Origin: Nemertoderma westbladi
Taxonomy: Eukaryota > Animalia > Xenacoelomorpha
Direction: 5' to 3'
Assembly (NCBI GenBank): GCA_032718475.1
Contig: JAUCBJ010005512.1
Span: 1-64,000, forward strand
Length of the DNA: 64,000 nt
Of the stretch, positions 19,507-53,263 are shown one piece after another (within the stretch, counting starts at the first letter, position 1; the number at the start of each line of letters is the position of its first letter). The position numbers and the translations under genes were made by a program. The notes beneath the pieces are model-generated. The model saw only the letters and a list, made by a program, of their open reading frames with translations, was not told where the DNA came from and did no database searches.

Positions 19507-19764
19507 AAGCGTAGTCGTGGACGACCGGCCATAATATATATAGATCAACTTGAAAGGGATACTGAACTTGGTAGACACGAAATTGCGACAACTATGGAGA
19601 ATCGGGAAGCCTGGAAGGATCTCATTTCCACTGTCTGAGTTCGGTCGACCTAGTAGTAGTAGTAGTACTGTAGGCCTACCGCATACCGGTGTGCTTGTTT
19701 CTATTGAATCCCCCTGAAAAAAGACTCCCTTGAATGGAGATTCATTCCAACTTACTGTATGTTG

Positions 19765-22700
19765 AATACAACCTAGGTTAAAAGATGTCTCTGGGTTTAA
19801 ATGAATCCCTTGATTAACACGATTCAATACAACCTAGGTTAAAAGATGTCTCTGGGTTTAAATGAATCCCTTGATTAACACGATTCAATACAACCTAGGT
19901 TAAAAGATGTCTCTGGGTTTAAATGAATGCCTTGATCAACACGATTCATTACAACCTAGGTTAAAAGATGTCTCTGGGTTTAAATGAATCCCTTGATCAA
20001 CACGATTCAATACAACGTAGGTTAAAAGATGTCTCTGGGTTTAAATTAATCGCTTGATTAACACGATTCAATACAACGTAGGTTAATAGATGTCTCTGGG
20101 TTTAAATGAATCCCTTGATTAACACGATTCAATACAACCTAGGTTAAAAGATGTCTCTGGGTTTAAATGAATCCCTTGATTAACACGATTCAATACAACC
20201 TAGGTTAAAAGATGTCTCTGGGTTTAAATTAATCGCTTGATTAACACGATTCAATACAACGTAGGTTAATAGATGTCTCTGGGTTTAAATGAATCCCTTG
20301 ATCAACACGATTCAATACAACCTAGGTTAAAAGATGTCTCTGGGTTTAAATGAATCCCTTGATCAATACGATTCAATACAACGTAGGTTAATAGATGTCT
20401 CTGGGTTTAAATGAATCCCTTGATCAACACGATTCAATACAACCTAGGTTAAAAGATGTCTCTGGGTTTAAATGAATCCCTTGATCAACACGATTCAATA
20501 CAACCTAGGTTAAAAGATGTCTCTGGGTTTAAATGAATCCCTTGATCAACACGATTCAATACAACCTAGGTTAAAAGATGTCTCTGGGTTTAAATGAATG
20601 CCTTGATCAACACGATTCAATACAACGTAGGTTAAAAGATGTCTCTGGGTTTAAATGAATGCCTTGATCAACACGATTCAATACAACCTAGGTTAAAAGA
20701 TGTCTCTGGGTTTAAATGAATGCCTTGATTAACACGATTCAATACAACCTAGGTTAAAAGATGTCTCTGGGTTTAAATGAATCCCTTGATTAACACGATT
20801 CAATACAACCTAGGTTAAAAGATGTCTCTGGGTTTAAATGAATCCCTTGATCAATACGATTCAATACAACGTAGGTTAATAGATGTCTCTGGGTTTAAAT
20901 GAATCCCTTGATCAACACGATTCAATACAACCTAGGTTAAAAGATGTCTCTGGGTTTAAATGAATCCCTTGATTAACACGATTCAATACAACCTAGGTTA
21001 ATAGATGTCTCTGGGTTTAAATGAATCCCTTGATTAACACGATTCAATACAACCTAGGTTAAAAGATGTCTCTGGGTTTAAATGAATCCCTTGATCAACA
21101 CGATTCAATACAACCTAGGTTAAAAGATGTCTCTGGGTTTAAATGAATCCCTTGATTAACACGATTCAATACAACCTAGGTTAAAAGATGTCTCTGGGTT
21201 TAAATGAATGCCTTGATCAACACGATTCATTACAACCTAGGTTAAAAGATGTCTCTGGGTTTAAATGAATCCCTTGATCAACACGATTCAATACAACCTA
21301 GGTTAAAAGATGTCTCTGGGTTTAAATTAATCCCTTGATTAATACGATTCAATACAACGTAGGTTAAAAGATGTCTCTGGGTTTAAATGAATCCCTTGAT
21401 TAATACGATTCAATACAACGTAGGTTAAAAGATGTCTCTGGGTTTAAATGAATCCCTTGATCAACACGATTCAATACAACGTAGGTTAAAAGATGTCTCT
21501 GGGTTTAAATGAATCCCTTGATTAATACGATTCAATACAACGTAGGTTAAAAGATGTCTCTGGGTTTAAATGAATCCCTTGATTAACACGATTCAATACA
21601 ACCTAGGTTAAAAGATGTCTCTGGGTTTAAACGAATCCCTTGATCAACACGATTCAATACAACCTAGGTTAAAAGATGTCTCTGGGTTTAAATGAATGCC
21701 TTGATCAACACGATTCATTACAACCTAGGTTAAAAGATGTCTCTGGGTTTAAATGAATCCCTTGATCAACACGATTCAATACAACCTAGGTTAAAAGATG
21801 TCTCTGGGTTTAAATGAATCCCTTGATTAACACGATTCAATACAACCTAGGTTAAAAGATGTCTCTGGGTTTAAACGAATCCCTTGATCAACACGATTCA
21901 ATACAACCTAGGTTAAAAGATGTCTCTGGGTTTAAATTAATCCCTTGATTAACACGATTCAATACAACGTAGGTTAAAAGATGTCTCTGGGTTTAAATGA
22001 ATCCCTTGATCAACACGATTCAATACAACCTAGGTTAAAAGATGTCTCTGGGTTTAAATGAATCCCTTGATCAACACGATTCAATACAACCTAGGTTAAA
22101 AGATGTCTCTGGGTTTAAATGAATCCCTTGATCAACACGATTCAATACAACCTAGGTTAAAAGATGTCTCTGGGTTTAAATGAATCCCTTGATTAACACG
22201 ATTCAATACAACCTAGGTTAAAAGATGTCTCTGGGTTTAAATGAATCCCTTGATTAACACGATTCAATACAACCTAGGTTAAAAGATGTCTCTGGGTTTA
22301 AATGAATCCCTTGATCAACACGATTCAATACAACCTAGGTTAAAAGATGTCTCTGGGTTTAAATGAATCCCTTGATTAACACGATTCAATACAACCTAGG
22401 TTAAAAGATGTCTCTGGGTTTAAATGAATCCCTTGATTAACACGATTCAATACAACCTAGGTTAAAAGATGTCTCTGGGTTTAAATGAATCCCTTGATTA
22501 ATACGATTCAATACAACGTAGGTTAAAATATGTCTCTGGGTTTAAATGAATCCCTTGATCAACACGATTCAATACAACCTAGGTTAAAAGATGTCTCTGG
22601 GTTTAAATGAATCCCTTGATTAACACGATTCAATACAACCTAGGTTAAAAGATGTCTCTGGGTTTAAATGAATCCCTTGATTAACACGATTCAATACAAC

Positions 22701-25700
22701 CTAGGTTAAAAGATGTCTCTGGGTTTAAATGAATCCCTTGATTAATACGATTCAATACAACGTAGGTTAAAATATGTCTCTGGGTTTAAATGAATCCCTT
22801 GATCAACACGATTCAATACAACCTAGGTTAAAAGATGTCTCTGGGTTTAAATGAATCCCTTGATTAACACGATTCAATACAACCTAGGTTAAAAGATGTC
22901 TCTGGGTTTAAATGAATGCCTTGATCAACACGATTCATTACAACCTAGGTTAAAAGATGTCTCTGGGTTTAAATGAATCCCTTGATCAACACGATTCAAT
23001 ACAACCTAGGTTAAAAGATGTCTCTGGGTTTAAATGAATGCCTTGATCAACACGATTCAATACAACCTAGGTTAAAAGATGTCTCTGGGTTTAAATGAAT
23101 CCCTTGATCAACACGATTCAATACAACCTAGGTTAAAAGATGTCTCTGGGTTTAAATGAATCCCTTGATCAACACGATTCAATACAACGTAGGTTAAAAG
23201 ATGTCTCTGGGTTTAAATGAATCCCTTGATTAACACGATTCAATACAACCTAGGTTAAAAGATGTCTCTGGGTTTAAATGAATCCCTTGATCAACACGAT
23301 TCAATACAACCTAGGTTAAAAGATGTCTCTGGGTTTAAATGAATCCCTTGATCAACACGATTCAATACAACGTAGGTTAAAAGATGTCTCTGGGTTTAAA
23401 TGAATCCCTTGATTAACACGATTCAATTCAACCTAGGTTAAAAGATGTCTCTGGGTTTAAATGAATGCCTTGATCAACACGATTCAATACAACCTAGGTT
23501 AAAAGATGTCTCTGGGTTTAAATGAATCCCTTGATCAACACGATTCAATACAACCTAGGTTAAAAGATGTCTCTGGGTCTAAATTAATCCCTTGATCAAC
23601 ACGATTCAATACAACCTAGGTTAAAAGATGTCTCTGGGTTTAAATTAATCCCTTGATTAATACGATTCAATACAACGTAGGTTAAAAGATGTCTCTGGGT
23701 TTAAATTAATCCCTTGATTAACACGATTCAATACAACGCAGGTTAAAAGATGTCTCTGGGTTTAAATTAATCGCTTGATTAACACGATTCAATACAACGC
23801 AGGTTAAAAGATGTCTCTGGGTTTAAATTAATCGCTTGATTAACACGATTCAATACAACCTAGGTTAAAAGATGTCTCTGGGTTTAAATGAATCCCCTGA
23901 TTAACACGATTCAATACAACCTAGGTTAAAATATGTTTCTGGGTTTAAATGTATCCCTTGATCAACACGATTCAATACAACGTAGGTTAATAGATGTCTC
24001 TGGGTTTAAATTAATCCCTTGATTAACACGATTCAATACAACCTAGGTTAAAAGATGTCTCTGGGTTTAAATGAATGCCTTGATTAACACGATTCAATAC
24101 AACCTAGGTTAAAAGATGTCTCTGGGTCTAAATGAATCCCTTGATCAACACGATTCAATACAACCTAGGTTAAAAGATGTCTCTGGGTTTAAATTAATCC
24201 CTTGATCAACACGATTCAATACAACCTAGGTTAAAAGATGTCTCTGGGTTTAAATGAATCCCTTGATTAACACGATTCAATACAACGTAGGTTAAAAGAT
24301 GTCTCTGGGTTTAAATGAATCCCTTGATTAACACGATTCAATACAACCTAGGTTAAAATATGTCTCTGGGTTTAAATGAATCCCTTGATTAACACGATTC
24401 AATACAACCTAGGTTAAAAGATGTCTCTGGGTTTAAATTAATCCCTTGATTAACACGATTCAATACAACCTAGGTTAAAAGATGTCTCTGGGTTTAAATG
24501 AATGCCTTGATTAACACGATTCAATACAACCTAGGTTAAAAGATGTCTCTGGGTTTAAATGAATCCCTTGATCAACACGATTCAATACAACCTAGGTTAA
24601 AAGATGTCTCTGGGTTTAAATGAATCCCTTGATCAACACGATTCAATACAACGTAGGTTAAAAGATGTCTCTGGGTTTAAATGAATCCCTTGATTAACAC
24701 GATTCAATTCAACCTAGGTTAAAAGATGTCTCTGGGTTTAAATGAATGCCTTGATCAACACGATTCAATACAACCTAGGTTAAAAGATGTCTCTGGGTTT
24801 AAATGAATCCCTTGATCAACACGATTCAATACAACCTAGGTTAAAAGATGTCTCTGGGTCTAAATTAATCCCTTGATCAACACGATTCAATACAACCTAG
24901 GTTAAAAGATGTCTCTGGGTTTAAATTAATCCCTTGATTAATACGATTCAATACAACGTAGGTTAAAAGATGTCTCTGGGTTTAAATTAATCCCTTGATT
25001 AACACGATTCAATACAACGCAGGTTAAAATATGTCTCTGGGTTTAAATTAATCGCTTGATTAACACGATTCAATACAACGCAGGTTAAAAGATGTCTCTG
25101 GGTTTAAATTAATCGCTTGATTAACACGATTCAATACAACCTAGGTTAAAAGATGTCTCTGGGTTTAAATGAATCCCCTGATTAACACGATTCAATACAA
25201 CCTAGGTTAAAATATGTTTCTGGGTTTAAATGTATCCCTTGATCAACACGATTCAATACAACGTAGGTTAATAGATGTCTCTGGGTTTAAATTAATCCCT
25301 TGATTAACACGATTCAATACAACCTAGGTTAAAAGATGTCTCTGGGTTTAAATGAATGCCTTGATTAACACGATTCAATACAACCTAGGTTAAAAGATGT
25401 CTCTGGGTCTAAATGAATCCCTTGATCAACACGATTCAATACAACCTAGGTTAAAAGATGTCTCTGGGTTTAAATTAATCCCTTGATCAACACGATTCAA
25501 TACAACCTAGGTTAAAAGATGTCTCTGGGTTTAAATGAATCCCTTGATTAACACGATTCAATACAACGTAGGTTAAAAGATGTCTCTGGGTTTAAATGAA
25601 TCCCTTGATTAACACGATTCAATACAACGTAGGTTAATAGATGTCTCTGGGTTTAAATTAATCCCTTGATTAACACGATTCAATACAACCTAGGTTAAAA

Positions 25701-28700
25701 GATGTCTCTGGGTTTAAATGAATGCCTTGATTAACACGATTCAATACAACCTAGGTTAAAAGATGTCTCTGGGTTTAAATGAATCTTTTGATCAACACGA
25801 TTCAATACAACGTAGGTTAAAAGATGTCTCTGGGTTTAAATGAATCCCTTGATTAACACGATTCAATACAACCTAGGTTAAAAGATGTCTCTGGGTTTAA
25901 ATGAATGCCTTGATTAACACGATTCAATACAACCTAGGTTAAAAGATGTCTCTGGGTTTAAATGAATCCCTTGATCAACACGATTCAATACAACGTAGGT
26001 TAAAAGATGTCTCTGGGTTTAAATGAATCCCTTGATTAACACGATTCAATACAACCTAGGTTAAAAGATGTCTCTGGGTTTAAATGAATCCCTTGATCAA
26101 CACGATTCAATACAACGTAGGTTAATAGATGTCTCTGGGTTTAAATGAATCCCTTGATCAACACGATTCATTACAACCTAGGTTAAAAGATGTCTCTGGG
26201 TTTAAATTAATCCCTTGATTAACACGATTCAATACAACCTAGGTTAAAAGATGTCTCTGGGTTTAAATTAATCCCTTGATTAACACGATTCAATACAACG
26301 TAGGTTAAAAGATGTCTCTGGGTTTAAATGAATCCCTTGATCAACACGATTCAATACAACGCAGGTTAAAAGATGTCTCTGGGTTTAAATTAATCCCTTG
26401 ATTAACACGATTCAATACAACCTAGGTTAAAAGATGTCTCTGGGTTTAAATTAATCCCTTGATTAACACGATTCAATACAACGTAGGTTAAAAGATGTCT
26501 CTGGGTTTAAATTAATCCCTTGATTAACACGATTCAATACAACCTAGGTTAAAATATGTCTCTGGGTTTAAATGAATCCCTTGATCAACACGATTCAATA
26601 CAACCTAGGTTAAAAGATGTCTCTGGGTTTAAATGAATCCCTTGATCAACACGATTCAATACAACGCAGGTTAAAAGATGTCTCTGGGTTTAAATTAATC
26701 CCTTGATTAACACGATTCAATACAACCTAGGTTAAAAGATGTCTCTGGGTTTAAATTAATCCCTTGATTAACACGATTCAATACAACGCAGGTTAAAAGA
26801 TGTCTCTGGGTTTAAATTAATCCCTTGATTAACACGATTCAATACAACCTAGGTTAAAAGATGTCTCTGGGTTTAAATGAATCCCTTGATCAACACGATT
26901 CAATACAACCTAGGTTAAAAGATGTCTCTGGGTTTAAATGAATCCCTTGATTAACACGATTCAATACAACCTAGGTTAAAAGATGTCTCTGGCTTTAAAT
27001 TAATCCCTTGATTAACACGATTCAATACAACGCAGGTTAAAAGATGTCTCTGGGTTTAAATTAATCCCTTGATTAACACGATTCAATACAACCTAGGTTA
27101 AAAGATGTCTCTGGGTTTAAATGAATCCCTTGATCAACACGATTCAATACAACGCAGGTTAAAAGATGTCTCTGGGTTTAAATTAATCCCTTGATTAACA
27201 CGATTCAATACAACCTAGGTTAAAAGATGTCTCTGGGTTTAAATTAATCCCTTGATTAACACGATTCAATACAACGCAGGTTAAAAGATGTCTCTGGGTT
27301 TAAATTAATCCCTTGATTAACACGATTCAATACAACCTAGGTTAAAAGATGTCTCTGGGTTTAAATTAATCCCTTGATTAACACGATTCAATACAACGTA
27401 GGTTAAAAGATGTCTCTGGGTTTAAATGAATCCCTTGATCAACACGATTCAATACAACGCAGGTTAAAAGATGTCTCTGGGTTTAAATTAATCCCTTGAT
27501 TAACACGATTCAATACAACCTAGGTTAAAAGATGTCTCTGGGTTTAAATGAATCCCCTGATTAACACGATTCAATACAACCTAGGTTAAAATATGTCTCT
27601 GGGTTTAAATGAATCCCTTGATCAACACGATTCAATACAACGCAGGTTAAAAGATGTCTCTGGGTTTAAATTAATCCCTTGATTAACACGATTCAATACA
27701 ACCTAGGTTAAAAGATGTCTCTGGGTTTAAATGAATCCCCTGATTAACACGATTCAATACAACCTAGGTTAAAAGATGTCTCTGGGTTTAAATGAATGCC
27801 TTGATTAACACGATTCAATACAACCTAGGTTAAAAGATGTCTCTGGGTTTAAATGAATCCCTTGATTAACACGATTCAATACAACCTAGGTTAAAAGATG
27901 TCTCTGGGTTTAAATTAATCCCTTGATTAACACGATTCAATACAACCTAGGTTAAAAGATGTCTCTGGGTTTAAATGAATCCCTTGATTAACACGATTCA
28001 ATACAACCTAGGTTAAAAGATGTCTCTGGGTTTAAATTAATCCCTTGATTAACACGATTCAATACAACCTAGGTTAAAAGATGTCTCTGGGTTTAAATGA
28101 ATCCCTTGATTAACACGATTCAATACAACCTAGGTTAAAAGATGTCTCTGGGTTTAAATGAATGCCTTGATCAACACGATTCAATACAACCTAGGTTAAA
28201 AGATGTCTCTGGGTTTAAATGAATCCCTTGATTAACACGATTCAATACAACCTAGGTTAAAAGATGTCTCTGGGTTTAAATTAATCCCTTGATTAACACG
28301 ATTCAATACAACCTAGGTTAAAAGATGTCTCTGGGTTTAAATGAATCCCTTGATTAACACGATTCAATACAACCTAGGTTAAAAGATGTCTCTGGGTTTA
28401 AATGAATGCCTTGATCAACACGATTCAATACAACCTAGGTTAAAAGATGTCTCTGGGTTTAAATGAATGCCTTGATCAACACGATTCAATACAACGTAGG
28501 TTAAAAGATGTCTCTGGGTTTAAATTAATCCCTTGATTAACACGATTCAATACAACCTAGGTTAAAAGATGTCTCTGGGTTTAAATTAATCCCTTGATTA
28601 ACACGATTCAATACAACCTAGGTTAAAAGATGTCTCTGGGTTTAAATGAATGCCTTGATCAACACGATTCATTACAACCTAGGTTAAAAGATGTCTCTGG

Positions 28701-30097
28701 GTTTAAATTAATCCCTTGATTAACACGATTCAATACAACCTAGGTTAAAAGATGTCTCTGGGTTTAAATTAATCCCTTGATTAACACGATTCAATACAAC
28801 CTAGGTTAAAAGATGTCTCTGGGTTTAAATTAATCCCTTGATCAACACGATTCAATACAACCTAGGTTAAAAGATGTCTCTGGGTTTAAATTAATCCCTT
28901 GATTAATACGATTCAATACAACCTAGGTTAAAAGATGTCTCTGGGTTTAAATTAATCCCTTGATTAACACGATTCAATACAACCTAGGTTAAAAGATGTC
29001 TCTGGGTTTAAATTAATCCCTTGATTAACACGATTCAATACAACGTAGGTTAAAAGATGTCTCTGGGTTTAAATGAATGCCTTGATCAACACGATTCAAT
29101 ACAACGTAGGTTAAAAGATGTCTCTGGGTTTAAATGAATCCCTTGATTAACACGATTCAATACAACGTAGGTTAAAAGATGTCTCTGGGTTTAAATTAAT
29201 CCCTTGATTAACACGATTCAATACAACCTAGGTTAAAAGATGTCTCTGGGTTTAAATGAATCCCTTGATTAACACGATTCAATACAACCTAGGTTAAAAG
29301 ATGTCTCTGGGTTTAAATTAATCCCTTGATCAACACGATTCAATACAACCTAGGTTAAAAGATGTCTCTGGGTTTAAATTAATCCCTTGATTAACACGAT
29401 TCAATACAACCTAGGTTAAAAGATGTCTCTGGGTTTAAATTAATCCCTTGATTAACACGATTCAATACAACCTAGGTTAAAAGATGTCTCTGGGTTTAAA
29501 TTAATCCCTTGATTAACACGATTCAATACAACGTAGGTTAAAAGATGTCTCTGGGTTTAAATGAATCCCTTGATTAACACGATTCAATTCAACCTAGGTT
29601 AAAAGATGTCTCTGGGTTTAAATGAATGCCTTGATCAACACGATTCAATACAACCTAGGTTAAAAGATGTCTCTGGGTTTAAATGTATCCCTTGATCAAC
29701 ACGATTCAATACAACCTAGGTTAAAAGATGTCTCTGGGTTTAAATGAATCCCTTGATCAACACGATTCAATACAACCTAGGTTAAAAGATGTCTCTGGGT
29801 TTAAATGAATCCCTTGATCAACACGATTCAATACAACCTAGGTTAAAAGATGTCTCTGGGTTTAAATGAATGCCTTGATCAACACGATTCATTACAACCT
29901 AGGTTAAAAGATGTCTCTGGGTTTAAATTAATCCCTTGATTAACACGATTCAATACAACCTAGGTTAAAAGATGTCTCTGGGTTTAAATGAATGCCTTGA
30001 TCAACACGATTCAATACAACCTAGGTTAAAAGATGTCTCTGGGTTTAAATGAATCCCTTGATCAACACGATTCAATACAACCTAGGTTAAAAGATGT
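19765..30097. repeat. 61-bp satellite array, about 169 copies
   Basis: Consensus caacctaggttaaaagatgtctctgggtttaaatgaatcccttgat(t/c)aacacgattcaata; the register shifts one base per 60-nt line. Confidence 0.98.
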
Positions 30098-30413
30098 GAA
30101 TACTAGAGGTCTCGCTACGCGGACCTACTAACGGAGTGAATACTAGAGGTCTCGCTACGCGGACCTAAAAACGGAGTGAATACTAGAGGTCTCGCTACGC
30201 GGACCTACTAACGGAGTGAATACTAGAGGTCTCGCTACGCGGACCTACTAACGGAGTGAATACTAGAGGTCTCGCTACGCGGACCTACTAACGGAGTGAA
30301 TACTAGAGGTCTCGCTACGCGGACCTAAAAACGGAGTGAATACTAGAGGTCTCGCTACGCGGACCTAAAAACGGAGTGAATACTAGAGGTCTCGCTACGC
30401 GGACCTAAAAACG
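30096..30413. repeat. 40-bp minisatellite, about 8 copies, each with a hairpin
   Basis: Unit gtgaatactagaggtctcgctacgcggaccta(ct/aa)aacgga directly abuts the 61-bp satellite. Confidence 0.95.
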
Positions 30414-31183: not shown

Positions 31184-32701
31184 GTCAAAGGTTACAAAAT
31201 ACCGAGTCGAAAGTTACAATTAGCCAGTCAAAGGTTACAAAATACCGAGTCGAAAGTTACAATTAGCCACTCAAAGGTTACAAAATACCGAGTCGAAAGT
31301 TACAATTAGCCACTCAAAGGTTACAAAATACCGAGTCGAAAGTTACAATTAGCCAGTCAAAGGTTACAAAATAACGAGTCGAAAGTTACAATTAGCCACT
31401 CAAAGGTTACAAAATACCGAGTCGAAAGTTACAATTAGCCACTCAAAGGTTACAAAATACCGAGTCGAAAGTTACAATTAGCCAGTCAAAGGTTACAAAA
31501 TACCGAGTCGAAAGTTACAATTAGCCAGTCAAAGGTTACAAAATACCGAGTCGAAAGTTACAATTAGCCAGTCAAAGGTTACAAAATACCGAGTCGAAAG
31601 TTACAATTAGCCAGTCAAAGGTTACAAAATACCGAGTCGAAAGTTACAATTAGCCAGTCAAAGGTTACAAAATACCGAGTCGAAAGTTACAATTAGCCAG
31701 TCAAAGGTTACAAAATACCGAGTCGAAAGTTACAATTAGCCACTCAAAGGTTACAAAATACCGAGTCGAAAGTTACAATTAGCCAGTCAAAGGTTACAAA
31801 ATACCGAGTTGAAAGTTACAATTAGCCAGTCAAAGGTTACAAAATACCGAGTCGAAAGTTACAATTAGCCAGTCAAAGGTTACAAAATACCGAGTCGAAA
31901 GTTACAATTAGCCAGTCAAAGGTTACAAAATACCGAGTCGAAAGTTACAATTAGCCAGTCAAAGGTTACAAAATACCGAGTCGAAAGTTACAATTAGCCA
32001 GTCAAAGGTTACAAAATACCGAGTCGAAAGTTACAATTAGCCAGTCAAAGGTTACAAAATACCGAGTCGAAAGTTACAATTAGCCACTCAAAGGTTACAA
32101 AATACCGAGTCGAAAGTTACAATTAGCCAGTCAAAGGTTACAAAATACCGAGTTGAAAGTTACAATTAGCCAGTCAAAGGTTACAAAATACCGAGTCGAA
32201 AGTTACAATTAGCCAGTCAAAGGTTACAAAATACCGAGTCGAAAGTTACAATTAGCCAGTCAAAGGTTACAAAATACCGAGTCGAAAGTTCCAATTAGCC
32301 AGTCAAAGGTTACAAAATACCGAGTCGAAAGTTACAATTAGCCAGTCAAAGGTTACAAAATACCGAGTCGAAAGTTACAATTAGCCAGTCAAAGGTTACA
32401 AAATACCGAGTCGAAAGTTACAATTAGCCAGTCAAAGGTTACAAAATACCGAGTCGAAAGTTACAATTACCCAGTCAAAGGTTACAAAATACCGAGTCGA
32501 AAGTTACAATTAGCCACTCAAAGGTTACAAAATACCGAGTCGAAAGTTACAATTAGCCAGTCAAAGGTTACAAAATACCGAGTCGAAAGTTACAATTAGC
32601 CAGTCAAAGGTTACAAAATACCGAGTCGAAAGTTACAATTATCCAGTCAAAGGTTACAAAATACCGAGTCGAAAGTTACAATTAGCCAGTCAAAGGTTAC
32701 A
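31184..32701. repeat. 43-bp minisatellite, about 35 copies (22+21 bp subrepeats)
   Basis: Unit gtcaaaggttacaaaataccgagtcgaaagttacaattagcca. Confidence 0.97.
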
Positions 32702-32923
32702 CAATTCAATTACATTACCCCAAGTTTTGCAAGAATAATTTGCTGCTAATAGCAGGTCAATGGTTTCAAATTACGAGTAAATGTAAATATTGAATGGGAG
32801 AATCTTTTAGGCTCGTTAAGCCAATGAATGCCTTTCACCACCATGGGTGAACAGTAAATCAGATCCACAGTAAACCCTTCCACTCTGTTTCCCAAGTTGC
32901 CTTGGTTCCCATTTATCGACAAG

Positions 32924-33933: not shown

Positions 33934-35101
33934 TGTAAAAGCTTTTGCGTCATTAACCGGTTATTTTCCCTTAAAGTACTCTGTAGTTGGTTTGCCAGGC
34001 ATAAAAAGGCCGTGTCCTTGCTGTACTGGTGTTTTAGAGGACATAAAAGTCATTTCTTCTGTATTTGTACTGTATTTGTACTTTAGAGGACATAATCCGC
34101 AATCTCGTGACGCGATAAGCTAGATACTCTTGAAAACAGTGTCGCTACCATGACGACGGCTAGCAGCTGATATTGCCACGTCGACATTTCTTTGTTTCTT
34201 TGTTCTCTCGTTGTTCGGTTGACCAATCAGAGCGTTTTTTGTCTCTGTGTTGGAGGTGTATACAGAACTCAGTAGTTCAGTGTTATGTTTTTGCCCAGAG
34301 CCTAAGAACATCGGATTTTGGCACCTCCGTGTTTTCAGTCTTTAGTCTTACATTAGTAGGCTTAATTATAGAACGTATATCTGTTATCACGAGTTACACA
34401 AGTTAACTCATTCACTTAATAATCATTTATACATTAATATTACTGCTTTTACTGTCGGTTATTCATTATATTGGTTGATGAATTATTATATCGGAATACT
34501 GATCAATAGTCAGACACCCCACCTTCTTGATATACAAAAGGTTAGAGAGACCGGTTACAGATAAACGATTGCGACCTATGTTGAGTGGTTTGAAGTGAAT
34601 CTAATGCTATTTCATATGCCCAACATAAATTGTCTGTTGCTCTCTTTATACGTGACCAAATTTAGTGAAGGTCGGCAGATTAGTGTGCAGTATTGTGCAG
34701 CATTGTGTATGAGTGTAACTGATAACAAAGCATCTCCTAAAGAATGCGCCATATACGTGAATCTATAGCCTTTTCGTTGTGTCTAGTTTAAGCCATAACT
34801 CTGTTTACATATTTAGAGCGCCACGTCCTAAAGGAACTGTTAATATTTCCCGAAAGTGAATAATATTTGTCAGAGATTATATATTACGATCAGTCGAATA
34901 ATACAGTAGGCTTACACCATCAATCATTAAGCCCCGAACTCAGTCTCCCGGGTATATCCAACGGGTGAATGATTGCGCATAGACTGGCTTCGGCTAATGT
35001 AGTGTATCAAATACTCGTCATAGGCTAAAGACTATCTATCATCCAAAAGACATTCTAATTTTGGCAGGTTAAACTGTCAAAGGTCTTCAAAAGCGCAAAC
35101 A
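33934..35101 (+). repeat. 5' LTR of element 1
   Basis: tgtaaaagcttttg...caaaagcgcaaaca; direct repeat of 45579-46746. Confidence 0.96.
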
Positions 35102-35112
35102 ATAACAGATAT
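35102..35112 (+). promoter_or_regulatory. Non-tRNA primer-binding site, complementary to LTR positions 34377-34387
   Basis: ataacagatat abuts the LTR with no TGG and is the exact reverse complement of atatctgttat in the LTR. Confidence 0.75.
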
Positions 35113-37307
35113 TGCTTCTGGATTGCGGTGTAAGCAATCAAGTCTAAAGTACCGGTACCGGTTGAACGGTAACCTGTACTGCTGTAGGCCTGTAGGCCCA
35201 ACTGCCCGAACCGGTACTTACGGTACAGGTACATCAGTATTATTCGATTTTGATAATTATATACCGGTAGGCCTCAATAATTAATCAGGGACGGCCGCCC
35301 TGGTTTTTTATTGAGATTTTACTTGTTTCTGTCAAGTTTTATTTATTTGTAGGCCAGTATTGAGCAGAAGGCGTGTAAGCCTGCGCAGATTGTACAGATA
35401 ATTTGTAGGCTTGACTGTTGGCTGACTGTTGATTAGGTCTGAACGGATTGCAGTGCATGTAGAGTGTATGTCCGATAAAGAACGGTTAGGAAGTAGGGGC
35501 AGCCATTGCTGTAAGGTAAACCCCCATCTAAAGAATAAGTCGTACTAGGGCCTACTGGGTTAGAACGCATACTACTTAACCATTTCGGAGTCTGCATGTC
35601 CTGTGGTTTATTTAGGCCTGATAGGAGTCCGCCGGCGTTTGGTCTGTACTTTGTTTGTGTAGTCTGTACGGGTAGCGTATAATTTTATTTAGATAATTTG
35701 TAGGCTGGATAGTTGTCTGGCTGCTGTTGGGTTTGAGGAAATTTCGGTGTGTGTAAAGCATCTGTCCGATAAAGAACGGTTAGGAAGTAGGGGCAGCCAT
35801 TGCTGTAAGGTAAACCCCCATCTAAAGAATAAGTCGTACTACTGGGTTAGAACGCATACTACTTAACCATTTCGGAGTCTACATATACCGTAGTTTGTTT
35901 AGGCTTGATAGTAGTCTGTCAGTATTTGGTCTGCATTTTGTTTGAATGGTTTGTACGCGTAGCGTAATATTTATTATTCAGAGTTTATGCGATTATTCGC
36001 AACATTCATTCCCCAAGTTTGTTCCTACAGTAATTGTGTTTGTTATACATACCGTTATAGTTAAACTAACCCCGGTACTATACGGGCTGCTTGGCGTAGG
36101 TAAAGACTGGTGATTTTGTGCACCGGTCACTCCAGCAGATGCCGTGGTTCTTTTAGCTGTTCAAGTATTTTTAACTACTAATTATTTGTTATACAAGTAT
36201 TTGTACCTAATTTAGGGTTTAGTGTACAGTGCTTTCCGAAAGCAATTAGTGTGTAGGCAGTATATTTGTGTTGTAAAGTGGTTAATAGGCACGTTGGTTC
36301 TGGTAGACCTCGGTAATTAACTTCTAGGTAGGGACACTCCGTGATACATAACGTAGTACCTATAGCGATACGGTTATAGGTCGTCAGGCGGTGGTATTTT
36401 CCTATCTGGACAGCGCAGTATATTTACTACTACTTATTATTTTCAAATACCGTAGTAACCTGTCCGTTGTAATAACCAGATATTCTAACCCTTTGTTAGG
36501 CTGGTTAGTAAACTTCTTGTAAAATTACCCTAAAAATTTGTATTTGTGTATTTGTAATTAAATTTTTGTGTTTATTTAGAGATTGTAATCTCAACCCGAA
36601 TTGTACGTAATTTATAGTATTAAGTAACTTAGGTAAATTAGAATTATTTGTTTTAGTGTCTAACAAGTAGCACTCCACTGAGAGCGCACAGCTTATGTGT
36701 AGTGACTCCCCCAGAAATAATAACATTTATTTCAAACATTGACAAAACCCATTAAACGGGTATATATATATTATAAATCAACTCAAACGATTTATAAATA
36801 GTAGGCCTGCCATACAACAATTAGGTCTCAATATCAGTTGGACTACTGCTTAAATAACGGTAATAAAGTAAGTTAAAGTAACCAAGTAACCCTTAAAATT
36901 CAGAAATTCAATTATTTAAAATAATTGATATACCGGTATTTACGATAGGCCTATTATATATTTATATACTTGTGCTGAAATCATACCGGTATTCTGTAAT
37001 TAATTCTAGTCTGTAATTATACTTATATATATACATTATAGGTGTAAACTGCATACCGGTATCCACGATAGGCCTATTATATATTTATATATATTTGTGC
37101 TAAAATTATATACCGGTTTCTGTGAAAAACCTAGTCTGTAATAATACTTATATATACAATAAGCATACCGGTATTCTAATATTATATATATATCACGCTA
37201 CACTGAGTAGCAGTATCGGTAATTAATTACTAGGCTAGCAGTTAATACTGAATTACTAGACTTACTTAGACTGTAATAGCAGTAGACATTCAACTGTGTA
37301 AACAAAC

Positions 37308-40300
37308 ATGTCTGATACTAAGCAGAACCTGTCAGACAGTTTATTAGATGTAACTATCTGCGACTCAGATAGAGGTGTAGAACCGTCTAGTCCTAAGTTC
37401 AGTTCACCTCCCACTGTGAGGAAGGTCATCCCTCCAGTAGTAATAACAGAACCTAGGCTGGTCCAACATCGTAGGTCTATCATAGGCACTCGAGCTCAGG
37501 TCAAGCGGGACCAAGAAGCAGCGGAACAGCAACAACCCGCGAGCCAAGAACTTATTTCTCAGCGGCCCGACAGCTCCAGTAGTGAAGATACTGTAGAACT
37601 GACACCCGAGCGCGGAGCAAAGATGACGGATGCGGTTTATTCGGATCCCCTTCTCATCCTTCCTGCAGCCGTACTCACTAGGTTATTGATCGCGGTGGAA
37701 GAACACCAGATCGATTGGGCGAGAAGTAAGCGATCAACTAAAGATAGTTATGAGGGATACACAAGGGAAGAACTGAAGTCTATGGTCGAGTCGCAATGGA
37801 ACTTCCCCGGACCCGGACTCCCGTTTGATTTATCAGAAGCTGCCTGGGAAGACATACACCGGATGGGAGTAGCCAAGGAAACCATCGATCCAGCTGTATG
37901 GAAGAGGTCCGCAGCCGGATACGCACAAGGATTCTTCAGCTCTATGGAGCGAGTAGAAAAACAACAACCTCAAGGACCTCAAGAGCAGGGACAACTGCTT
38001 TATCAAGTTAGAGAAAGAATTCTGCGAATTAGGCTAATCTTATCGGCCTTTGAGGAGGCTTCTAAAAGAAGACAAGACACGTCGTTGCAAGTTGCCGTAA
38101 AGACTTGGTTTCAACGTGTGAGTCGCCAGGTTCAAGGAACAGCTCAGTGGAAAGCTCAGCTGGAGGAGCGCTCAACCCATGGAGAATCAACAGACGCTAC
38201 TTTTTCCCAAGTGGAAAGTGAAGCGACGGCAGAGAAACCGCATAAGAGGGATGCCATTGACATCTATCTGTCAGACTATCAGCGTTTTTTGGGAGACGAA
38301 GAGTTGAGGAGAAGGCTAGATGGACTTAGCCCTAATAGTGAAGGAGCCCAGCGTGTGTTGGACGCAATTGATGTGGATAGGTTAGCGGCGAACCAAGCTA
38401 AATTCGATGAACAACTCCGCATCGCTAGAGACCAAGAAGAAAGGGTGAAGAAAAAACGCATAGAAGACAGAAAGAAAGCAGCAGTAGCAGCGGCAGAAGC
38501 GGAACGAAAAGCGGTAGAAGTGGATAGAAAAGCGGCAGAGGAAGCGGCAGAGGCAGCGGCAGAGGCAAAAGCGGCAGCGGCAGAGGCAAAAGCGGCAGCT
38601 GCAGCAGTAGAAGCCGAAAGAAAGGTGGCCGAAGCGGAAAGAAAGGTGGCAGCAGCAGAAGCGAAAAGAAAAGCATCTGAAATGGAAAGAAAAGCGGCAA
38701 TGGCAGCGGCAGAAGCAGAACGGATAGCGGCTGAAGAGATCGCCCAATTAGAATTGGAAAATATTCAGGAGAATCAAGACTGCATAAATAAACAGTTAAC
38801 AGCTAGTAATATGCAGATGATGAATCGATCTACTCCCAAAAGACAGGGATATACATCATCTGAGGAAGGCGATACCACCGATACTGAAGGCAAAGGAAAT
38901 AGATCTCACCTAAGCAGACGCAAAAGAACATTCCACCGTCAAAAATTGCCTGATTTGCCTCCAGCTGTTAGAAGGCAACTAAATAACACCAACTTAGGTA
39001 GTACAGAACCCACAGACCAAATAATTACAATAGAGAGACTCCCTACTATAGTAGATGAGCCTGAAATAGTTAGGTCTGTTCCCGAAGCCACCCTTTCGGT
39101 CGTAGAGACACCTGTCCTCCCTGAACCTACCTCTCAATTCCCTTTGCACAGCACTAAGCTACCTGTGCCCAGCAGAACAGCCCATGAGACAGTTCATGCC
39201 CTGGACTCCGAGCAAAATATTCATGATTTGTCGCCCGTTGTCCCTCGTCCGCCCGCTACAACGTTGGCGAATCCCGCTTCGGCGGTTGAATGGGTGGATG
39301 AGAGACAACGGGGGATGGATCTCCTGCTCGGACAGATGCAGGAGACCGTTCAGCAATTCAAGGGCACAGTAAGGGAAAGTAGGCTAGAGTTGCAAGAAGT
39401 GCAGCAAAGTATCGCGTTAGAACGCGATAAATTAGTAAATACACAAAAGGGTATACCACCACCCCCTGTAACAATGTGTCAACCTGTTAGGTCTGAAGTA
39501 TCTCATGCGCGCGCAAGGTGTGGAGCCTACACGCATCTATACTGCTAGCGAAGTAGAAACTCCTATAGTGAACCCTATTAAGGGTAATTATAGACCTGTT
39601 GATAATGATATTCCCTATAGACCGGATCATAATCCGAGAAATTTATATACCGATAACTCGATATTAAATAACACGATGGCCCAAGAAAGTTTTACGCGTC
39701 AAATGGCTAGAACCGAAGCCCGGCAAGCGGTAAAGGTGGGAGAGATCGTCAAGTTCAATGGAGATGAGATGAAATGGTTACCTTTTAATGAATATTACAA
39801 AGATAACATACAGAACTCTGTGCTATCTAATGGAGAGAAACTTAGATTCCTCATCGAGTGCTTGGAAGGATCTCCCAAGTTAATGGCGTTAAAGTTTATT
39901 GGACATCCAGACGGATTAAGACAAGTTTGGGATACACTAAACATCAGGTATGGTAATAGGAATAACATAGCTGGGTATTTGTATGCAAAGTTGGTAGCGC
40001 CCCGAAAGTTTCTTAGCAGCGGGATTATAGAGTTTTCCGATGAAATTCAGGAGATCTGCAGACAATTAGATTGGCTAGGTAAGTCTCATGAGTATCAGAG
40101 TGCTATGGTTATTAGAGCAGTGGCTTCTACTTTACCGAAGGGTGGAGTAGGTACACGCTGGGATAAGAAAGTGTTATATATGATGGAACAACAACGACGA
40201 GATCCTACCATGGCTGATCTCATGTCATTCCTAGATGGAGAAGTGAAATTACAGCTCCTGAAACTGTCCAGAGAGAAGACACCGGAAAACAAGGTAAGTG

Positions 40301-42324
40301 AAAAACCCGTCGCTAGGAGAAAGGTAACACCAGTGTGTTATACAGATGATGGCGAAAGCCAGACTTCTCAAGGAGAAGATAGCGGGAAAGACACTGACAG
40401 ATCTTATTACGTAAATAAAATGCCTAAAGATCAGGTAAGTAAATTCAAGTCTCGAACAAATGACAGGAGAGAACAGGTAAGAAAAACTCCTCCTACGTCT
40501 CCCAAGAGAATTCAGGTGAGAAAGCCCGAAGAAAAAGCAAGTGTACACAATGTTACTCAGAGTAAGGTAAGTAACATCAAACCGAAATGTGCGCTATGTG
40601 ATGGGACCCATCGCTTAAATATGTGTGATGAATTTCTAAAGAAATCATTAACTGAGAGACGTGAAGTCATGTGGGACAAGCGGTTGTGCTATAATTGCCT
40701 CAGACGAGGACACCAACGGCGAACCTGTTACTCCGACGCAAGGTGTGCAAAGTGCGGTGCGAAACATCATATCTTGTTGCACACTGAATTCGAGCGAAAT
40801 AGTCCGAGTCAGGTGAGTGATTCCGAACTACATGTGCAATTCAGTGATGTGAACGACACTGATCAATCTGAGATGGAAGGATTCTATACGGACGAGTTCT
40901 CCGACGAAAACGAATCCTGTTACATGATAAATACCGCAGTGTATCGAGCACTCACTCATGAAAAAGATACAGACAGCGACCTCACCCTAACTACTTCAGA
41001 TCAACAACAATCTTGGAAAGCGCCAACTTCAAATGTAGGAATCTGAGAATTTCCTGTAGTCCAGTTACGGGTCCACGGACCTCAGAAGAGCTATATAGTG
41101 AACGCCCTCCTGGACTCCGGCAGCACAGGAACATTCATCGATAAAGAACTAGCCGAAGACATCTTTGCTGGACAACCCAAGTTCCGAACCAAGCTAAACA
41201 TGTCAGGGATCATGCAGGTTTGGAAATCTGCTGTGGCTGCCGACTATTATATAGGTGAGTTGTCCACACCACAGGATAAACTAGGAGAATACAGTATAAG
41301 GTCAGTCAAAATGGTGGCAATAAAGAACTTCGCTACCACCCAAGTGGAACCTTATAATTGGGACGAAGATGATCATGCCCAACAACTTAACATTCCTAGA
41401 TTCGACACCGATTATCCTGGAGTACAAATATTAATCGGTCAAAACGCGCATGAGGCGCTGGAGACATTGGAGAAACGACCTGCTCAACCGCAACCACTTC
41501 AGACCTATGCGGTAAGAACTAGAGTAGGTTGGTACCTTACTGGACCTTCCCGAAGAACGCTCAGAGAAAGACTGCTTCAAGATCGCGTCTGCCAAGTGAG
41601 TGAATGGGAAGATGATACTAGTGAGGGAGACGACCCAACTGAGGGAACACCATACTCCTCAGATAATGACGATATTAGCTCCAATGTAGATCAATGGAGA
41701 TATTGCCCCAAGAAGTTTAATCCAACTGACATCGCTTCCAGAGGAGCAACTCCTCAAGAACTGACAGATACTACAGACCGGTTAGGTGAACCCGACTTCC
41801 TGAGTAAGGAGGATGAATGGCCTCCCCATCTTACTCCGACTGAGATTAGACCAGCCAAGGGAGCGGAGAAAGTCAAACCTAAAACCCGGACGGGTGGATC
41901 GGAGTTATTTGAACCCGGGATAGATCTGTCGGTATTACATATTGCCAGAGACGACGCCGTGGATCTGGACCTCCCCACCGCGAGTGGATCCTCCATGAAG
42001 ATCAGAGAGAGCGATTGGAGCTCTGGAACATCAGACGTCTCGCAGGGACTCTCACCTCTCCTGCAGGGAGCGACGGACCACTATAGCTCCTGGAATCGGC
42101 TTTGTAAGGCCGTCGTGTACCTAGAGCGATGTTTCTATCGTCACTATTCCAGGACGAAGAGGAAACCTGGAATTGTATTCGGGATGCAGCGACTCAATCA
42201 CCCAGTCGGTCGTTTGTGTTTACCGGAAGGGAATGGAGGACTCTCCGGAAACTGTGGAAGGCAAGATTCTCTTCCCACGACCACCTCCCTAATCCTTCAA
42301 ACATCTAGGGACTCCATAACGTAA
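37308..42324 (+). pseudogene. gag-pol: gag-protease-(delta RT, delta IN) polyprotein of element 1
   Basis: Three ORF pieces joined by a frameshift near 39507 and a TGA at 41044. Triple Zn knuckle and ALLDSGS protease present. RT and most of RNase H are missing at ~41675; integrase is missing at ~42158. Confidence 0.92.
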
Positions 42325-43970
42325 CAACATATGGAGTGGGTGTGTGACTCTATTATTTTGTATTTGTTTTATTTTTATATTTATGTATGTATTATTATGT
42401 AATTTTATTTTAATCGTTTTATTTAATTTTATTTAGTAGTATGGTATTTTAGAGATTATTTAGTAGATTAGTGCAATATATATTCGCGTTTATTATTTAA
42501 TTACGTATATTATATATTTAGTGCGACGGCGAGAAATAATTCTTTTTCTCTTTCCTTACTGCCCGTATTACATTATCAATACGTGACTACAGTAAGATGA
42601 AATCTTCGTACTTATTAAAGTACAATAAAGCCACTACTATATTCAAGTATTATTGGTAGGCAGAGTATTAGGAATGCAAAGTTCAGATCCTCGTGTCTCG
42701 GCTAAACCAAGCTCTGGGTAGACCTTGGAAACGACTTGCCTCTTCACACTGACATTGCTTCGTGCGATATTGCTCTCATACCGTATATTAAATAATACAT
42801 ATAGTAGCGTGATGTCCCTTTAACAGTAGCGTATAACGCAAATTAAATCTGTTAAACCCTTTGACCATATGTAATTCTAGTCGATTAAGATATCGCAGCA
42901 CCCACCGATATACTTGAAAGACAAATTCTAGAATCAATGGTTAACGTCCCCAGACAAGTTCTGGAATAAACTGGTGCCCATCCTAAATATTAATTATTAA
43001 TATTTACAAAAATCTGTCAAATATCAGATCCTTTAAAATTCTAGTCGATTAAGATATCGTAGCACTTACCGATACTCTTAAAAGGACAAAATTCCTAGAA
43101 TCAAGGATCCCAGTCCCCAGACACGTTCTGGAATCAAATTGTGTCAATTTAACATTAAATAATAAAATTTACGGGAATAAATTTAAATTCATATATTTCA
43201 ATCAATTTAATAAATTGTCATTTTGTACAATTTATAACATTCCCAAAATTCCATTAATTAATAGATCATGGGAGCGGAGATTCACTCTATTAAGTGTATT
43301 TGTGTGCGAGAATCTCCAATGTATAGTCAATAGCCGATAAAATTCATAGAATCATGTATAAAGGGGATATTGACCATTAAAGAATTACTATTAAATAGCA
43401 TCCCAGATCTGTATGCATGAGAATTACCCTAATTCTACCGCTAGCTTTCCATAATGTCACCATGGCAACAACCACGCTAGAATTAGAAGTGAGTTAAAAG
43501 AACAATAGAAAGCATGCCCCATTGAATAGCATAGGGAATAAATAGCGCACTGCTAGTATCCAAGGATACATAATAAATACAGTGACATTCTGGAAGGTAC
43601 TGACTAACGGACAAATGGCCCGAATGTGTGATAGAATGTGTACAATTTGTGACAGTTACGTGGAATTTGTGCGTTTGTAGGTGAATGTTACTACTAAGGT
43701 GTGTTTACAGTAGCGAGTCGCAATTGTGAAAGTAACCCTAACTCTCCAGTAAGAACCTGAAGTATATCTAAGCCTTTGGGACGGACGGTGGAGTGGCTCG
43801 TGCTGGTTGTTGTAGTCGTTGTGCAGCTACGACGTTGGCGATAGGCACATCGGCGAAAGTACACCAGCGCTGAGGATCTCGCACTGTCCGGGGGCAGAGA
43901 GGGGTAGGCAGCGACGCCCGCTCGCCTGAATATAAACTCATTATAATATGGATAAATTTATATAGCAGAT

Positions 43971-45500
43971 ATGATTGAGTTGATAGAAGATGATCTTGGT
44001 ATCAGGGAGCGATATACTCTACCTTTACAAGCGTTTGTCGATATCTTGATACGCGGCGACGCTGGTCCAACTGCTGCGGAGGACGATGGTCGTTATATCG
44101 AACCGCCAATGTCCCAAGAGCAGCTCACGCGTGAGTTGGACTATAGAAAATTCACCGCTCGCTATACGCATCGTAATGGTACGTATGTGGACTTCTTAAC
44201 TACTGGTCATCCTATCGACCTACACGATACGGACGATATAGACACCGAAAGGGAAATGGTTTTATTTAAATATCATACCCAGCGGAAGCGGAACGATAAA
44301 TTGAGACTCGAACACGAAAATTCTATTCGAAACCGACTCGAAAGTGCAGATGTCGAAGAGCCGGATAAACGCAGCGACTCCACCAAATACCTGGAATTCT
44401 TGAGATAAACCTATCTCGATATTACCAGTCAACAGAATCTAGAAACTCTATATCCTCAAGGTATACATCATGACCGCATGGTAGAACTCAAACGGTTCTA
44501 TTCCACTATGATGTATCTTACCGCCGATCGACCGCTACCTGTTGTACCGGATAGCTTCGAACGGATGGAAGAATATTGTAAGCTGGAGAAAGATCACTCG
44601 CGTTTCCCCTACAAGACGTGCGTTATTGGTATTTTGCGATGAATGCCCAAGACCCAACCAACAAACGGAAAGACATAAACATCCGCGGAGACGTTGCACT
44701 AAACACGGTTTTACTCGCTATACTTGCGGGAGTTTCGAGCGAAATTTGTTTGACGTATCACCTACGCTCGTTCGACTCAGACAATCCTTAAATAAACCAA
44801 TGATCAGAGTTTCGGAATACTCGATCAGATCTCCTCATTCCCTAGTGAGACCTCAGACTCTTGATCCTATTAGTATGACGGATCCTCCCGAGCTGTACTC
44901 ACTGTTCAAAGATCTAGTGTTACCTGAACAATTAGTCGGTGGCACCCGGTTGTGGGCTTCCTAGATATTAGCCCATCCTACCTAGCCGGATTGGGACGCG
45001 GACATTTAATATCGCCGTTTAACCCTTACCATCGTCCCGGCTTAACACGATATACGCGATATAACCTGTCACCAAAGTGGCGGAGAACGTTGTACCAAAC
45101 GAGTTAAACGCTATTCTACAAAGATCAGAAAGGAAACCTGCGTTTGTTCAGATAAACGTAAGTTGTAACAGCAAGTCCAAGCGATAAACGAATTGTCTTT
45201 ATCTCAGTTCGATTGTGAAATCCAGAATCTCTAAGAAGATATCGAACTTAGACAACCCCATGCTCTGCGAGAGTTTTTGGATGAACGTATCCAGCTACGA
45301 GCGGAGGAAAATCAGCTCGAGGAGAAGCATATCGAAACGGCGGATACCCCGACCATAATCCTACACCTTCTGATGCAATCATATTGCACCCTTCACCCAG
45401 GATTTATAGCCCTCCTAGTAAAGTGGCTCGCCCCAAAGAGAAAAGGACTCTTGCTAGCCTCAAAAAACTGCGTAAACGCCGTCTGCGTAAGAAAGACTAA
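43971..45500 (+). pseudogene. Accessory 3' ORF of element 1 (unknown protein, disrupted)
   Basis: Protein-like frames continue through stops and frameshifts, including FCDEC..HKHPRRRCTKH and a basic tail KKLRKRRLRKKD*; the N-terminus is conserved at 63792. Confidence 0.7.
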
Positions 45501-45578
45501 CTGTTTAGAGTATCTTTATATTTTAGAAACTGTGATTTGTTATATTTTATAGACTTAAATCCCATTTTCTGGGAGCGG

Positions 45579-46746
45579 TGTAAAAGCTTTTGCGTCATTA
45601 ACCGGTTATTTTCCCTTAAAGTACTCTGTAGTTGGTTTGCCAGGCATAAAAAGGCCGTGTCCTTGCTGTACTGGTGTTTTAGAGGACATAAAAGTCATTT
45701 CTTCTGTATTTGTACTGTATTTGTACTTTAGAGGACATAATCCGCAATCTCGTGACGCGATAAGCTAGATACTCTTGAAAACAGTGTCGCTACCATGACG
45801 ACGGCTATCAGCTGATATTGCCACGTCGACATTTCTTTGTTTCTTTGTGCTCTCGTTGTTCGGTTGACCAATCAGAGCGTTTTTTGTCTCTGTGTTGGAG
45901 GTGTATACAGAACTCAGTAGTTCAGTGTTATGTTTTTGCCCAGAGCCTAAGAACATCGGCTTTTGGCACCTCCGTGTTTTCAGTCTTTAGTCTTACATTA
46001 GTAGGCTTAATTATAGAACGTATATCTGTTATCACGAGTTACACAAGTTAACTCATTCACTTAATAATCATTTATACATTAATATTACTGCTTTTACTGT
46101 CGGTTATTCATTATATTGGTTGATGAATTATTATATCGGAATACTGATCAATAGTCAGACACCCCACCTTCTTGATATACTAAAGGTTAGAGAGACCGGT
46201 TACAGATAAACGATTGCGACCTATGTTGAGTGGTTTGAAGTGAATCTAATGCTATTTCATATGCCCAACATAAATTGTCTGTTGCTCTCTTTATACGTGA
46301 CCAAATTTAGTGAAGGTCGGCAGATTAGTGTGCAGTATTGTGCAGCATTGTGTATGAGTGTAACTGATAACAAAGCATCTCCTAAAGAATGCGCCATATA
46401 CGTGAATCTATAGCCTTTTCGTTGTGTCTAGTTTAAGCCATAACTCTGTTTACATATTTAGAGCGCCACGTCCTAAAGGAACTGTTAATATTTCCCGAAA
46501 GTGAATAATATTTGTCAGAGATTATATATTACGATCAGTCGAATAATACAGTAGGCTTACACCATCAATCATTAAGCCCCGAACTCAGTCTCCCGGGTAT
46601 ATCCAACGGGTGAATGATTGCGCATAGACTGGCTTCGGCTAATGTAGTGTATCAAATACTCGTCATAGGCTAAAGACTATCTATCATCCAAAAGACATTC
46701 TAATTTTGGCAGGTTAAACTGTCAAAGGTCTTCAAAAGCGCAAACA
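45579..46746 (+). repeat. 3' LTR of element 1
   Basis: Near-identical to 33934-35101, preceded by a purine-rich tract. Confidence 0.96.
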
Positions 46747-53250: not shown

Positions 53251-53263
53251 GTAACAGTTTATA
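53251..53263 (+). promoter_or_regulatory. Non-tRNA primer-binding site, complementary to LTR positions 52484-52496
   Basis: gtaacagtttata is the exact reverse complement of tataaactgttac. Confidence 0.78.

Follow-up and report, generated by a model that had tools for sequence, protein, structure and literature searches.

Within the window, by which we mean the whole 64-kb stretch of DNA analysed here, self-BLAST finds four related LTRs (Table 1). Two of them flank element 1, where they differ at 4 of 1168 positions, the third is the 5′ LTR of element 2 and the fourth is solo; TG...CA LTRs together with a 5-bp target-site duplication were found for element 1 and for the solo LTR. A single gag-pol frame in element 2 carries the Pfam domains DUF1759, Peptidase_A17, DUF5641 and Integrase_H2C2, and because it does so elements 1 and 2 and the solo LTR group are BEL/Pao LTR retrotransposons. 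The proteins nearest to the element 2 polyprotein, likewise BEL/Pao, are about 40–43% identical to it, and the lineage is therefore an isolated one. Pfam gives no chromodomain match in element 2, which does not group with the Ty3/gypsy chromoviruses (Tf1/sushi clade).

Element 1 is without the part that would match residues 988–1575 of element 2, that is the RT and most of the RNase H (tblastn), and so cannot supply its own RT; it is non-autonomous. The putative catalytic residues of the element 2 RT and RNase H are intact, going by comparison with homologs: four acidic residues at putative RNase H positions, as well as three putatively assigned to RT and one to protease, are common to element 2 and 20 of 20 homologs, with a putative integrase triad being shared with 19–20 of the 20. 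A PDB search with the RNase H stretch of element 2 returned no match.

There are no tRNA or tmRNA genes within the 64-kb window. Separate from, and unrelated to, the BEL elements is an RVT_1 reverse-transcriptase fragment of 390 codons at 18334–19506. Self-BLAST also shows tandem arrays at 19762–30097, 30096–30413 and 31184–32705, with periods of ~61, 80 and 86 nt, and positions 1–10378 hold nested segmental duplications of 0.7–4.5 kb that are 92–99% identical.

Table 1. Positions in the window of the elements, their LTRs and the predicted RNA features
Feature	Position	Strand	Remarks
Element 1	33934–46746	+	LTR pair and GGCTT target-site duplication
Element 1 5′ LTR	33934–35101	+	TG...CA, 1168 nt
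Predicted self-primer, element 1	34377–34387	+	11 nt, PBS complement
G-poor variable linker 3′ of primer	34388–34440	+	likely single-stranded
Possible small three-way junction (weak)	34719–34784	+	holds helix c 5′ strand
43-nt run invariant between the two elements	34814–34856	+	no partner or fold found
Outer clamp, LTR strand	34893–34904	+	pairs with leader 35237–35248; overlaps AATACA at 34900
Downstream pretzel duplex, LTR strand	34910–34925	+	pairs with leader 35121–35135, 9+5 bp
Helix a domain	34934–34993	+	5+7 bp stem, inner CCCG/CGGG stem; loop holds helix b 5′ strand
Helix b, 5′ strand	34970–34978	+	pseudoknot with helix a
Hairpin d	35047–35087	+	z −3.45
Helix b, 3′ strand (upstream pretzel duplex)	35093–35101	+	LTR end including terminal CA
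PBS, element 1	35102–35112	+	complement of LTR-internal primer
Downstream pretzel duplex, leader strand	35121–35135	+
Outer clamp, leader strand	35237–35248	+
Element 1 gag-pol remnant	37302–42324	+	interrupted frames; tblastn, Pfam DUF1759
Element 1 3′ LTR	45579–46746	+
Element 2 5′ LTR	52041–53250	+	primer 52484–52496 (13 nt), AATAAA at 53057
Element 2 LTR strands	53013–53024; 53038–53058	+	clamp; downstream duplex
Element 2 PBS and leader strands	53251–53402	+	PBS 53251–53263; leader 53267–53292, 53391–53402
Element 2 BEL/Pao polyprotein frame	55403–62170	+	intact, 2255 codons
Solo LTR, same group	16712–17907	−	target-site duplication present

Self-primer, primer binding site and conservation

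The PBS does not start with TGG and, in a comparison confined to the elements' own sequence, pairs with a segment inside the LTR. This primer/PBS duplex has no mismatch in either element; its length is 11 bp in element 1 and 13 bp in element 2, and the letters differ. The primer begins at LTR position 444 in each and lies 725–767 nt upstream of the PBS; it is contiguous in all three LTRs, and the element 1 primer sequence also occurs in the solo LTR (17459–17469, minus strand). Shuffled sequences reached such a match in 4 of 2000 cases for element 1 and 1 of 2000 for element 2, and the cognate duplexes, at −10.5 and −13.9 kcal/mol, fall to −6.1 and −5.7 when partners are swapped. Directly 3′ of the primer the linker has G at 3 of 53 nt in element 1, 1 of 69 in element 2 and 4 of 80 in the solo LTR, against an LTR average of 19% G. 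On the 5′ side U3 (33934–34375 versus 52041–52483) is nearly unalignable at 42% and has the same length up to the primer, which suggests a promoter swap in which the spacing was kept.

The initial annotation held the 3′ half of the LTR to be far better conserved than U3. As a comparison with U3 that stands (79%, 435 of 551 positions over 34530–35101, versus 42%), but it does not single out the 3′ half, as identity between elements 1 and 2 is higher still in the leader (84%, 1791/2129) and in the 3′ non-coding stretch (86%, 1573/1823), with four-fold degenerate sites at 71% (163/231). It is U3 that is the outlier, the 3′ LTR half being conserved like the remaining non-coding RNA. The distal leader (35991–36900 versus 54130–55000) is 87–94% identical, above R-U5 and far above the four-fold sites, and may owe this either to strong constraint, such as packaging or IRES structure, or to recent recombination.

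Block 34720–34890 is conserved, has no excess fold and has the best family coverage in 4 of 4 runs. Its 43-nt invariant run lies where summed contig depth, a rough measure, peaks in 4 of 4 runs (the contigs are mostly DNA, and the variants listed from them are unphased and an incomplete set); invariant runs of 51, 51, 45 and 41 nt in the leader match it in length. The possible three-way junction at its upstream edge has 3 double changes among 26 consensus pairs, yet its z-scores are +0.5 and −0.3. Coding of a peptide by the invariant block is unlikely because of indels and frame breaks in the alignment. An intron at 34541–34816, for which weak AG/GT and AG signals were seen by eye, was likewise set aside, there being no strong donor motif and no such joint in the contigs.

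Helices of the 3′ LTR half and duplexes with the leader

The proposal that reached us was of a covarying RNA structure occupying 34530–35101 and comprising a nested stem (helix a), a pairing of its loop with the LTR end (helix b), a long-range helix c and a terminal hairpin d. All 12 quoted motifs that were checked are where they were said to be. Helix a consists of CCGAA/TTCGG at 34934–38/34989–93 and a 7-bp stem at 34940–46/34981–87; its 12 pairs are all kept in the three LTRs, two of them with double changes, and a comparable helix appears in 1 of 500 block-shuffled alignments. Taken alone it is not unusually stable (z −0.7 and −1.1). Helix b proved longer than claimed, continuing across one A.A mismatch to the terminal CA (34970–78/35093–101), with 8 of 8 pairs kept, one of them doubly changed; an LTR-end helix of this kind is reached in 16 of 500 shuffles, and helices a and b jointly in none of 500 block-shuffled alignments.

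Helix c is not supported: 3 of its 18 cells are unpaired, only 4 bp are left in element 2 and its probability is 0.0 in the nested ensembles of both elements; each of its strands has local rival partners. Hairpin d is confirmed as stable (z −3.5 and −4.2; pairing probability 0.98 in both elements), but its changes are one-sided only, G-C to G-U. In the three-LTR alignment 4 of 43 pairs (128 cells) change on both sides, a number reached in 11 of 500 shuffles, which is no probability as the structure was derived from the same sequences. Taken over the whole 3′ half covariation is marginal: there are 15 helices of at least 5 bp with a double change versus 8.6 ± 3.6 in shuffled sequence (reached in 8 of 150), with no excess of helices of at least 7 bp (8 versus 9.5; 99 of 150). 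The sample behind all covariation counts is three LTRs and two leaders.

The proposed limits do not hold. The stretch 34530–35115 folds like its shuffles (z −0.31), the first ~360 nt of the claimed stretch (34530–34890) being without excess fold, and partners downstream of the PBS, in the leader, to which the greater part of the stability is due, had been missed. Between primer and start codon there are 41 perfect duplexes of at least 9 bp in element 1 and 52 in element 2, many of them from palindromic repeats. Two LTR-leader duplexes stand out. The outer clamp is 12 bp in both elements with pairing probabilities of 0.97 and 0.78; judged by energy, 0 of 60 leader shuffles were as good in either element, while by longest perfect match the evidence is modest (19/500 and 11/500 shuffles). 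The downstream duplex begins 4–9 nt past the PBS, has a pairing probability of 0.95–0.98, and in element 2 (53038–58 with 53267–92) amounts to 10+10 bp. By longest perfect match it is again modest (148/2000 and 71/2000), and by energy none of 60 leader shuffles was as good in element 2; the same energy test in element 1 gives 35360–85, not the PBS-proximal site, as the best partner of 34906–27. A second partner of 34906–34917, at 35373–35384, scores −19.0 in element 1 and −7.7 in element 2. The downstream duplex is not element-specific in both directions because the element 2 LTR strand pairs well with the element 1 leader (−19.0 versus −23.6 for the cognate partners); the reverse swap fails (−8.7 versus −17.6).

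When LTR end, PBS and leader are folded together as a junction domain (34888–35252), z against shuffles is −5.62, and −4.83 in element 2, with 0 of 100 shuffles reaching it in each case, the limits having been picked after the helices were known. In an unbiased scan of 360-nt windows those over the junction have z of −2.4 to −3.8 and those upstream −0.8 to +1.5, with one at −1.4; a good part of the leader elsewhere likewise has windows at −2 to −3. Folds from primer to leader +300, made for each element alone, give probabilities of 0.78–0.98 to hairpin d and to both the clamp and the downstream duplex. Of the two overlapping helices the nested ensembles choose b in element 1 and a in element 2, as expected if they form a pseudoknot, which is beyond a nested model; the primer duplex, which crosses the clamp, scores 0 in such a model. 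Carried over from one element to the other, 84 confident pairs comprise 56 that are the same, 9 with one-sided and 5 with double changes, 10 broken and 4 in gaps; in the reciprocal transfer the 85 pairs divide into 40, 7, 1, 8 and 29, respectively, with an alignment that misplaces a short duplication in element 2. The picture is of a stable predicted fold that straddles the LTR end, the PBS and the leader, a modelled RNA knot of ~360 nt that takes in the first ~150 nt of the leader.

Two other features of the leader may be recorded. Both elements have many palindromic TACCGGTA repeats (35150–35270 and 36930–37175 in element 1), possible dimerisation or protein-binding sites. A wobble-rich antisense match of 19 bp between 34965–34985 and 35982–36000, the latter within a 51-nt invariant run, was considered as a switch that would open helices a and b, but it is not the best partner in element 2 and 3 of 60 shuffles reach it.

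Readings of the junction fold

The best reading of the knot is as an enlarged Tf1-like self-priming structure, predicted to extend across the LTR end, PBS and leader of a BEL/Pao element. Tf1 has a central primer/PBS duplex and two duplexes of PBS-adjacent sequence with the LTR downstream of the primer (bioRxiv 10.1101/2022.12.06.519325), and RNase H cleavage there falls between bases 11 and 12 (PMC7175516). As described in PMC4600332, PMC7175516 and the bioRxiv preprint, the ‘pretzel’ of Tf1, Tf2, Tj1 and Tosmo, Ty3/gypsy chromoviruses of the Tf1/sushi group, shares with the elements here a PBS complementary to an LTR segment, of 11 nt there and 11–13 here, the two extra duplexes beside the PBS and the CA of the LTR end. 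The self-complementary PBS, the upstream duplex (helix b) and the downstream duplex are all found here. The scaffold half of the initial proposal, a folded domain docking the primer on the PBS, thus gains support, with helix b as one of three PBS-flanking duplexes. What differs from Tf1 is the host element, BEL/Pao, the position of the primer 725–767 nt upstream of the PBS, the addition of a 12-bp clamp, an a/b pseudoknot, hairpin d and a G-poor linker, and a fold that is probably far larger than that of Tf1.

How might such a structure work? On balance it seems likely that the knot keeps the 5′ end of the same RNA docked at the PBS, for RT/RNase H to cut it off as primer, as in Tf1. Transcription would start at or near the primer, because only with a free 5′ end at or near it could the primer wind around a PBS that is itself enclosed in a loop, and the G-poor linker would give the primer its reach. 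Helices a and b and the primer duplex would stack, b against each of the other two, with the bond after primer nucleotide 11–13 placed at the helical junction; the RT/RNase H protein would then make the cut and leave a 3′-OH. Element 1, being without RT, would be served in trans. A side job is likely, in that the LTR-leader duplexes can form only at the 5′ LTR, where they lie over AATACA in the clamp or touch AATAAA, candidate poly(A) hexamers, and so may suppress early polyadenylation. Retroviruses likewise have U5-leader pairing around the PBS that is possible only in the 5′ LTR, namely the U5-IR stem and the occlusion of the 5′ LTR poly(A) signal, and a likeness of Tf1 to U5-IR has reportedly been proposed; they are primed by tRNA, whereas here the primer would come from the same RNA.

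Could this side job be the main one? That the LTR-leader pairings act mainly in masking the 5′ LTR poly(A) signal, in packaging or in dimer formation, rather than in priming, we consider unlikely. AATACA at 34900, presumably a variant poly(A) hexamer, is common to the three LTRs and lies within the clamp strand; element 1, as initially reported, has no AATAAA in its LTR, and that of element 2 at 53057 has 2 nt in common with the downstream duplex. Two single-contig loose ends in this region also contain AATAAA, and the abundance of palindromic TACCGGTA repeats in the leader would suit packaging or dimer formation. However, AATACA is a variant hexamer only, and such a function leaves unexplained why helix b ends exactly at the PBS and why primer and PBS covary.

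Comparable doubt attaches to self-priming in which the primer end is produced by host machinery (3′-end processing, the spliceosome or a nuclease of the host), the knot doing no more than exposing the site. What speaks for it comes from distant elements. Pattern scans for relatives of the family LTR found none in three scans of viral contigs and none in genome contigs, a metagenome 15-mer scan picked up 119 loci, whose flanks showed no similarity (best E 0.005) and of which the 21 inspected were an unrelated repeat, and of the stretches flagged by protein scans of viral contigs 0 of 4 and 0 of 218 held up. Prokaryote MAG records did contain 18 BEL loci (L120–L137), 26–39% identical, that are most likely contaminating eukaryote DNA; their LTRs show no similarity to those of the elements here (best E 0.12), and a repeat search found LTR-like pairs around an internal region in 4 of the 18. 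Two of these loci, L128 and L135, have no clear self-primer. In L121 (1001–1800) and L122 (1001–1890), both within one bacterial MAG, the PBS pairs for only 8 nt with the unspliced LTR and for 11 nt when read across an LTR-internal GT-AG junction, with introns of 338 and 451 nt and with letters that differ between the two loci and compensate, so that a splice-built self-primer is likely there; an AAT(A)AAA-like run adjoins the primer end in both. In the elements of the window, however, the primer is contiguous in 3 of 3 LTRs and is not followed by GT, a motif scan gave no strong 5′ splice motif and the contigs contain no GT-AG joint, the last being weak testimony from contigs that are mostly DNA.

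The initial annotation also held that the domain may cut the self-primer, and this half of its proposal has gained no positive evidence and no Rfam family at threshold. In its developed form the knot would be a large ribozyme of a new class, hydrolysing the bond that follows the self-primer so as to leave a 3′-OH, its core being the invariant unpaired stretches at 34814–34856, in the helix a loop and in the hairpin d loop. The predicted cut site does sit at a stacked-helix junction, the domain exceeds what Tf1 needs and the 43-nt invariant run, in which no partner was found, coincides with the part that has the best family coverage in all 4 runs; even so we rate this reading as improbable. The 2 and 3 matches that Rfam scans of the two elements produced fall far short of threshold (E 2.9–7.4; best 5.3 and 2.9), and the core motifs of hammerhead, twister, HDV, group I, group II and RNase P are absent or isolated. 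As for an HDV-like nested double pseudoknot, P3, L3 and P1.1 are absent, there is no Rfam match, and only 2 nt separate the 5′ strand of b from the 3′ strand of a. Hammerhead and twister cores gave no Rfam match and their motifs are absent in element 1 or isolated; the group I, group II, lariat-capping and RNase P/MRP classes likewise gave no Rfam match, with short isolated motifs not common to both elements in a motif scan (P7/R-S, domain V, P4 with CR-I and CR-V) that a highly diverged or permuted core could escape. Only one base is shared past the cut site, the leader also has long invariant runs (51, 51, 45 and 41 nt), and the putative RNase H residues are intact in an element family that encodes the protein which does the cutting in Tf1. 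Small self-cleaving ribozymes leave a cyclic phosphate, which cannot prime, a primer needing a 3′-OH, and this counts against a small ribozyme as primer maker. The HDV-like, hammerhead and twister ribozymes of retroelements, whose products end in the same way, as found in R2, L1Tc, retrozymes and Penelope, resemble the knot in being structured, pseudoknotted RNA at an element end; they release the element RNA, and here there is no match to their families or core. If the new-ribozyme reading were true, an LTR retrotransposon would be making its own primer by RNA catalysis.

That the helices other than primer/PBS are chance pairings in closely related, recombining sequence is very unlikely, for while covariation over the whole LTR half is marginal (8/150), all non-coding DNA downstream of U3 is 79–86% identical and the upstream 360 nt and helix c would fit with chance, the same helices arise independently in the two elements with junction z of −5.6 and −4.8, and a and b together were reached in 0 of 500 alignments.

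Returning to the Tf1-like reading, three-duplex self-priming is known for the Tf1/sushi group and self-priming is predicted for some copia lineages. The predicted self-primers among TAR-lineage Ty1/copia elements and Tcn1 share with the elements here the absence of a tRNA PBS and an LTR-internal complement of at least 10 nt; they belong to other superfamilies, and the accessible text of PMC6317226 has no extended fold. A literature search at the level of titles and abstract openings, covering few subscription journals, found no paper on BEL/Pao self-priming, a BEL/Pao fold of this kind or a primer-cutting LTR ribozyme; element tables in supplements could contain BEL/Pao PBS annotations. If the reading is right, the BEL/Pao layout would have arisen independently, in a further superfamily and with a scaffold of much greater size, and would bring a new enzyme to the old question of how an RT generates its primer by cleavage within an RNA-RNA duplex.

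A last observation concerns the leader, where both elements have a tandem repeat of ~290 nt (35395–35982 and 53542–54124). Acceptor-like and donor-like splice motifs can be seen in it by eye, and a 9-nt primer match, absent in element 1, is present in each of the element 2 copies.
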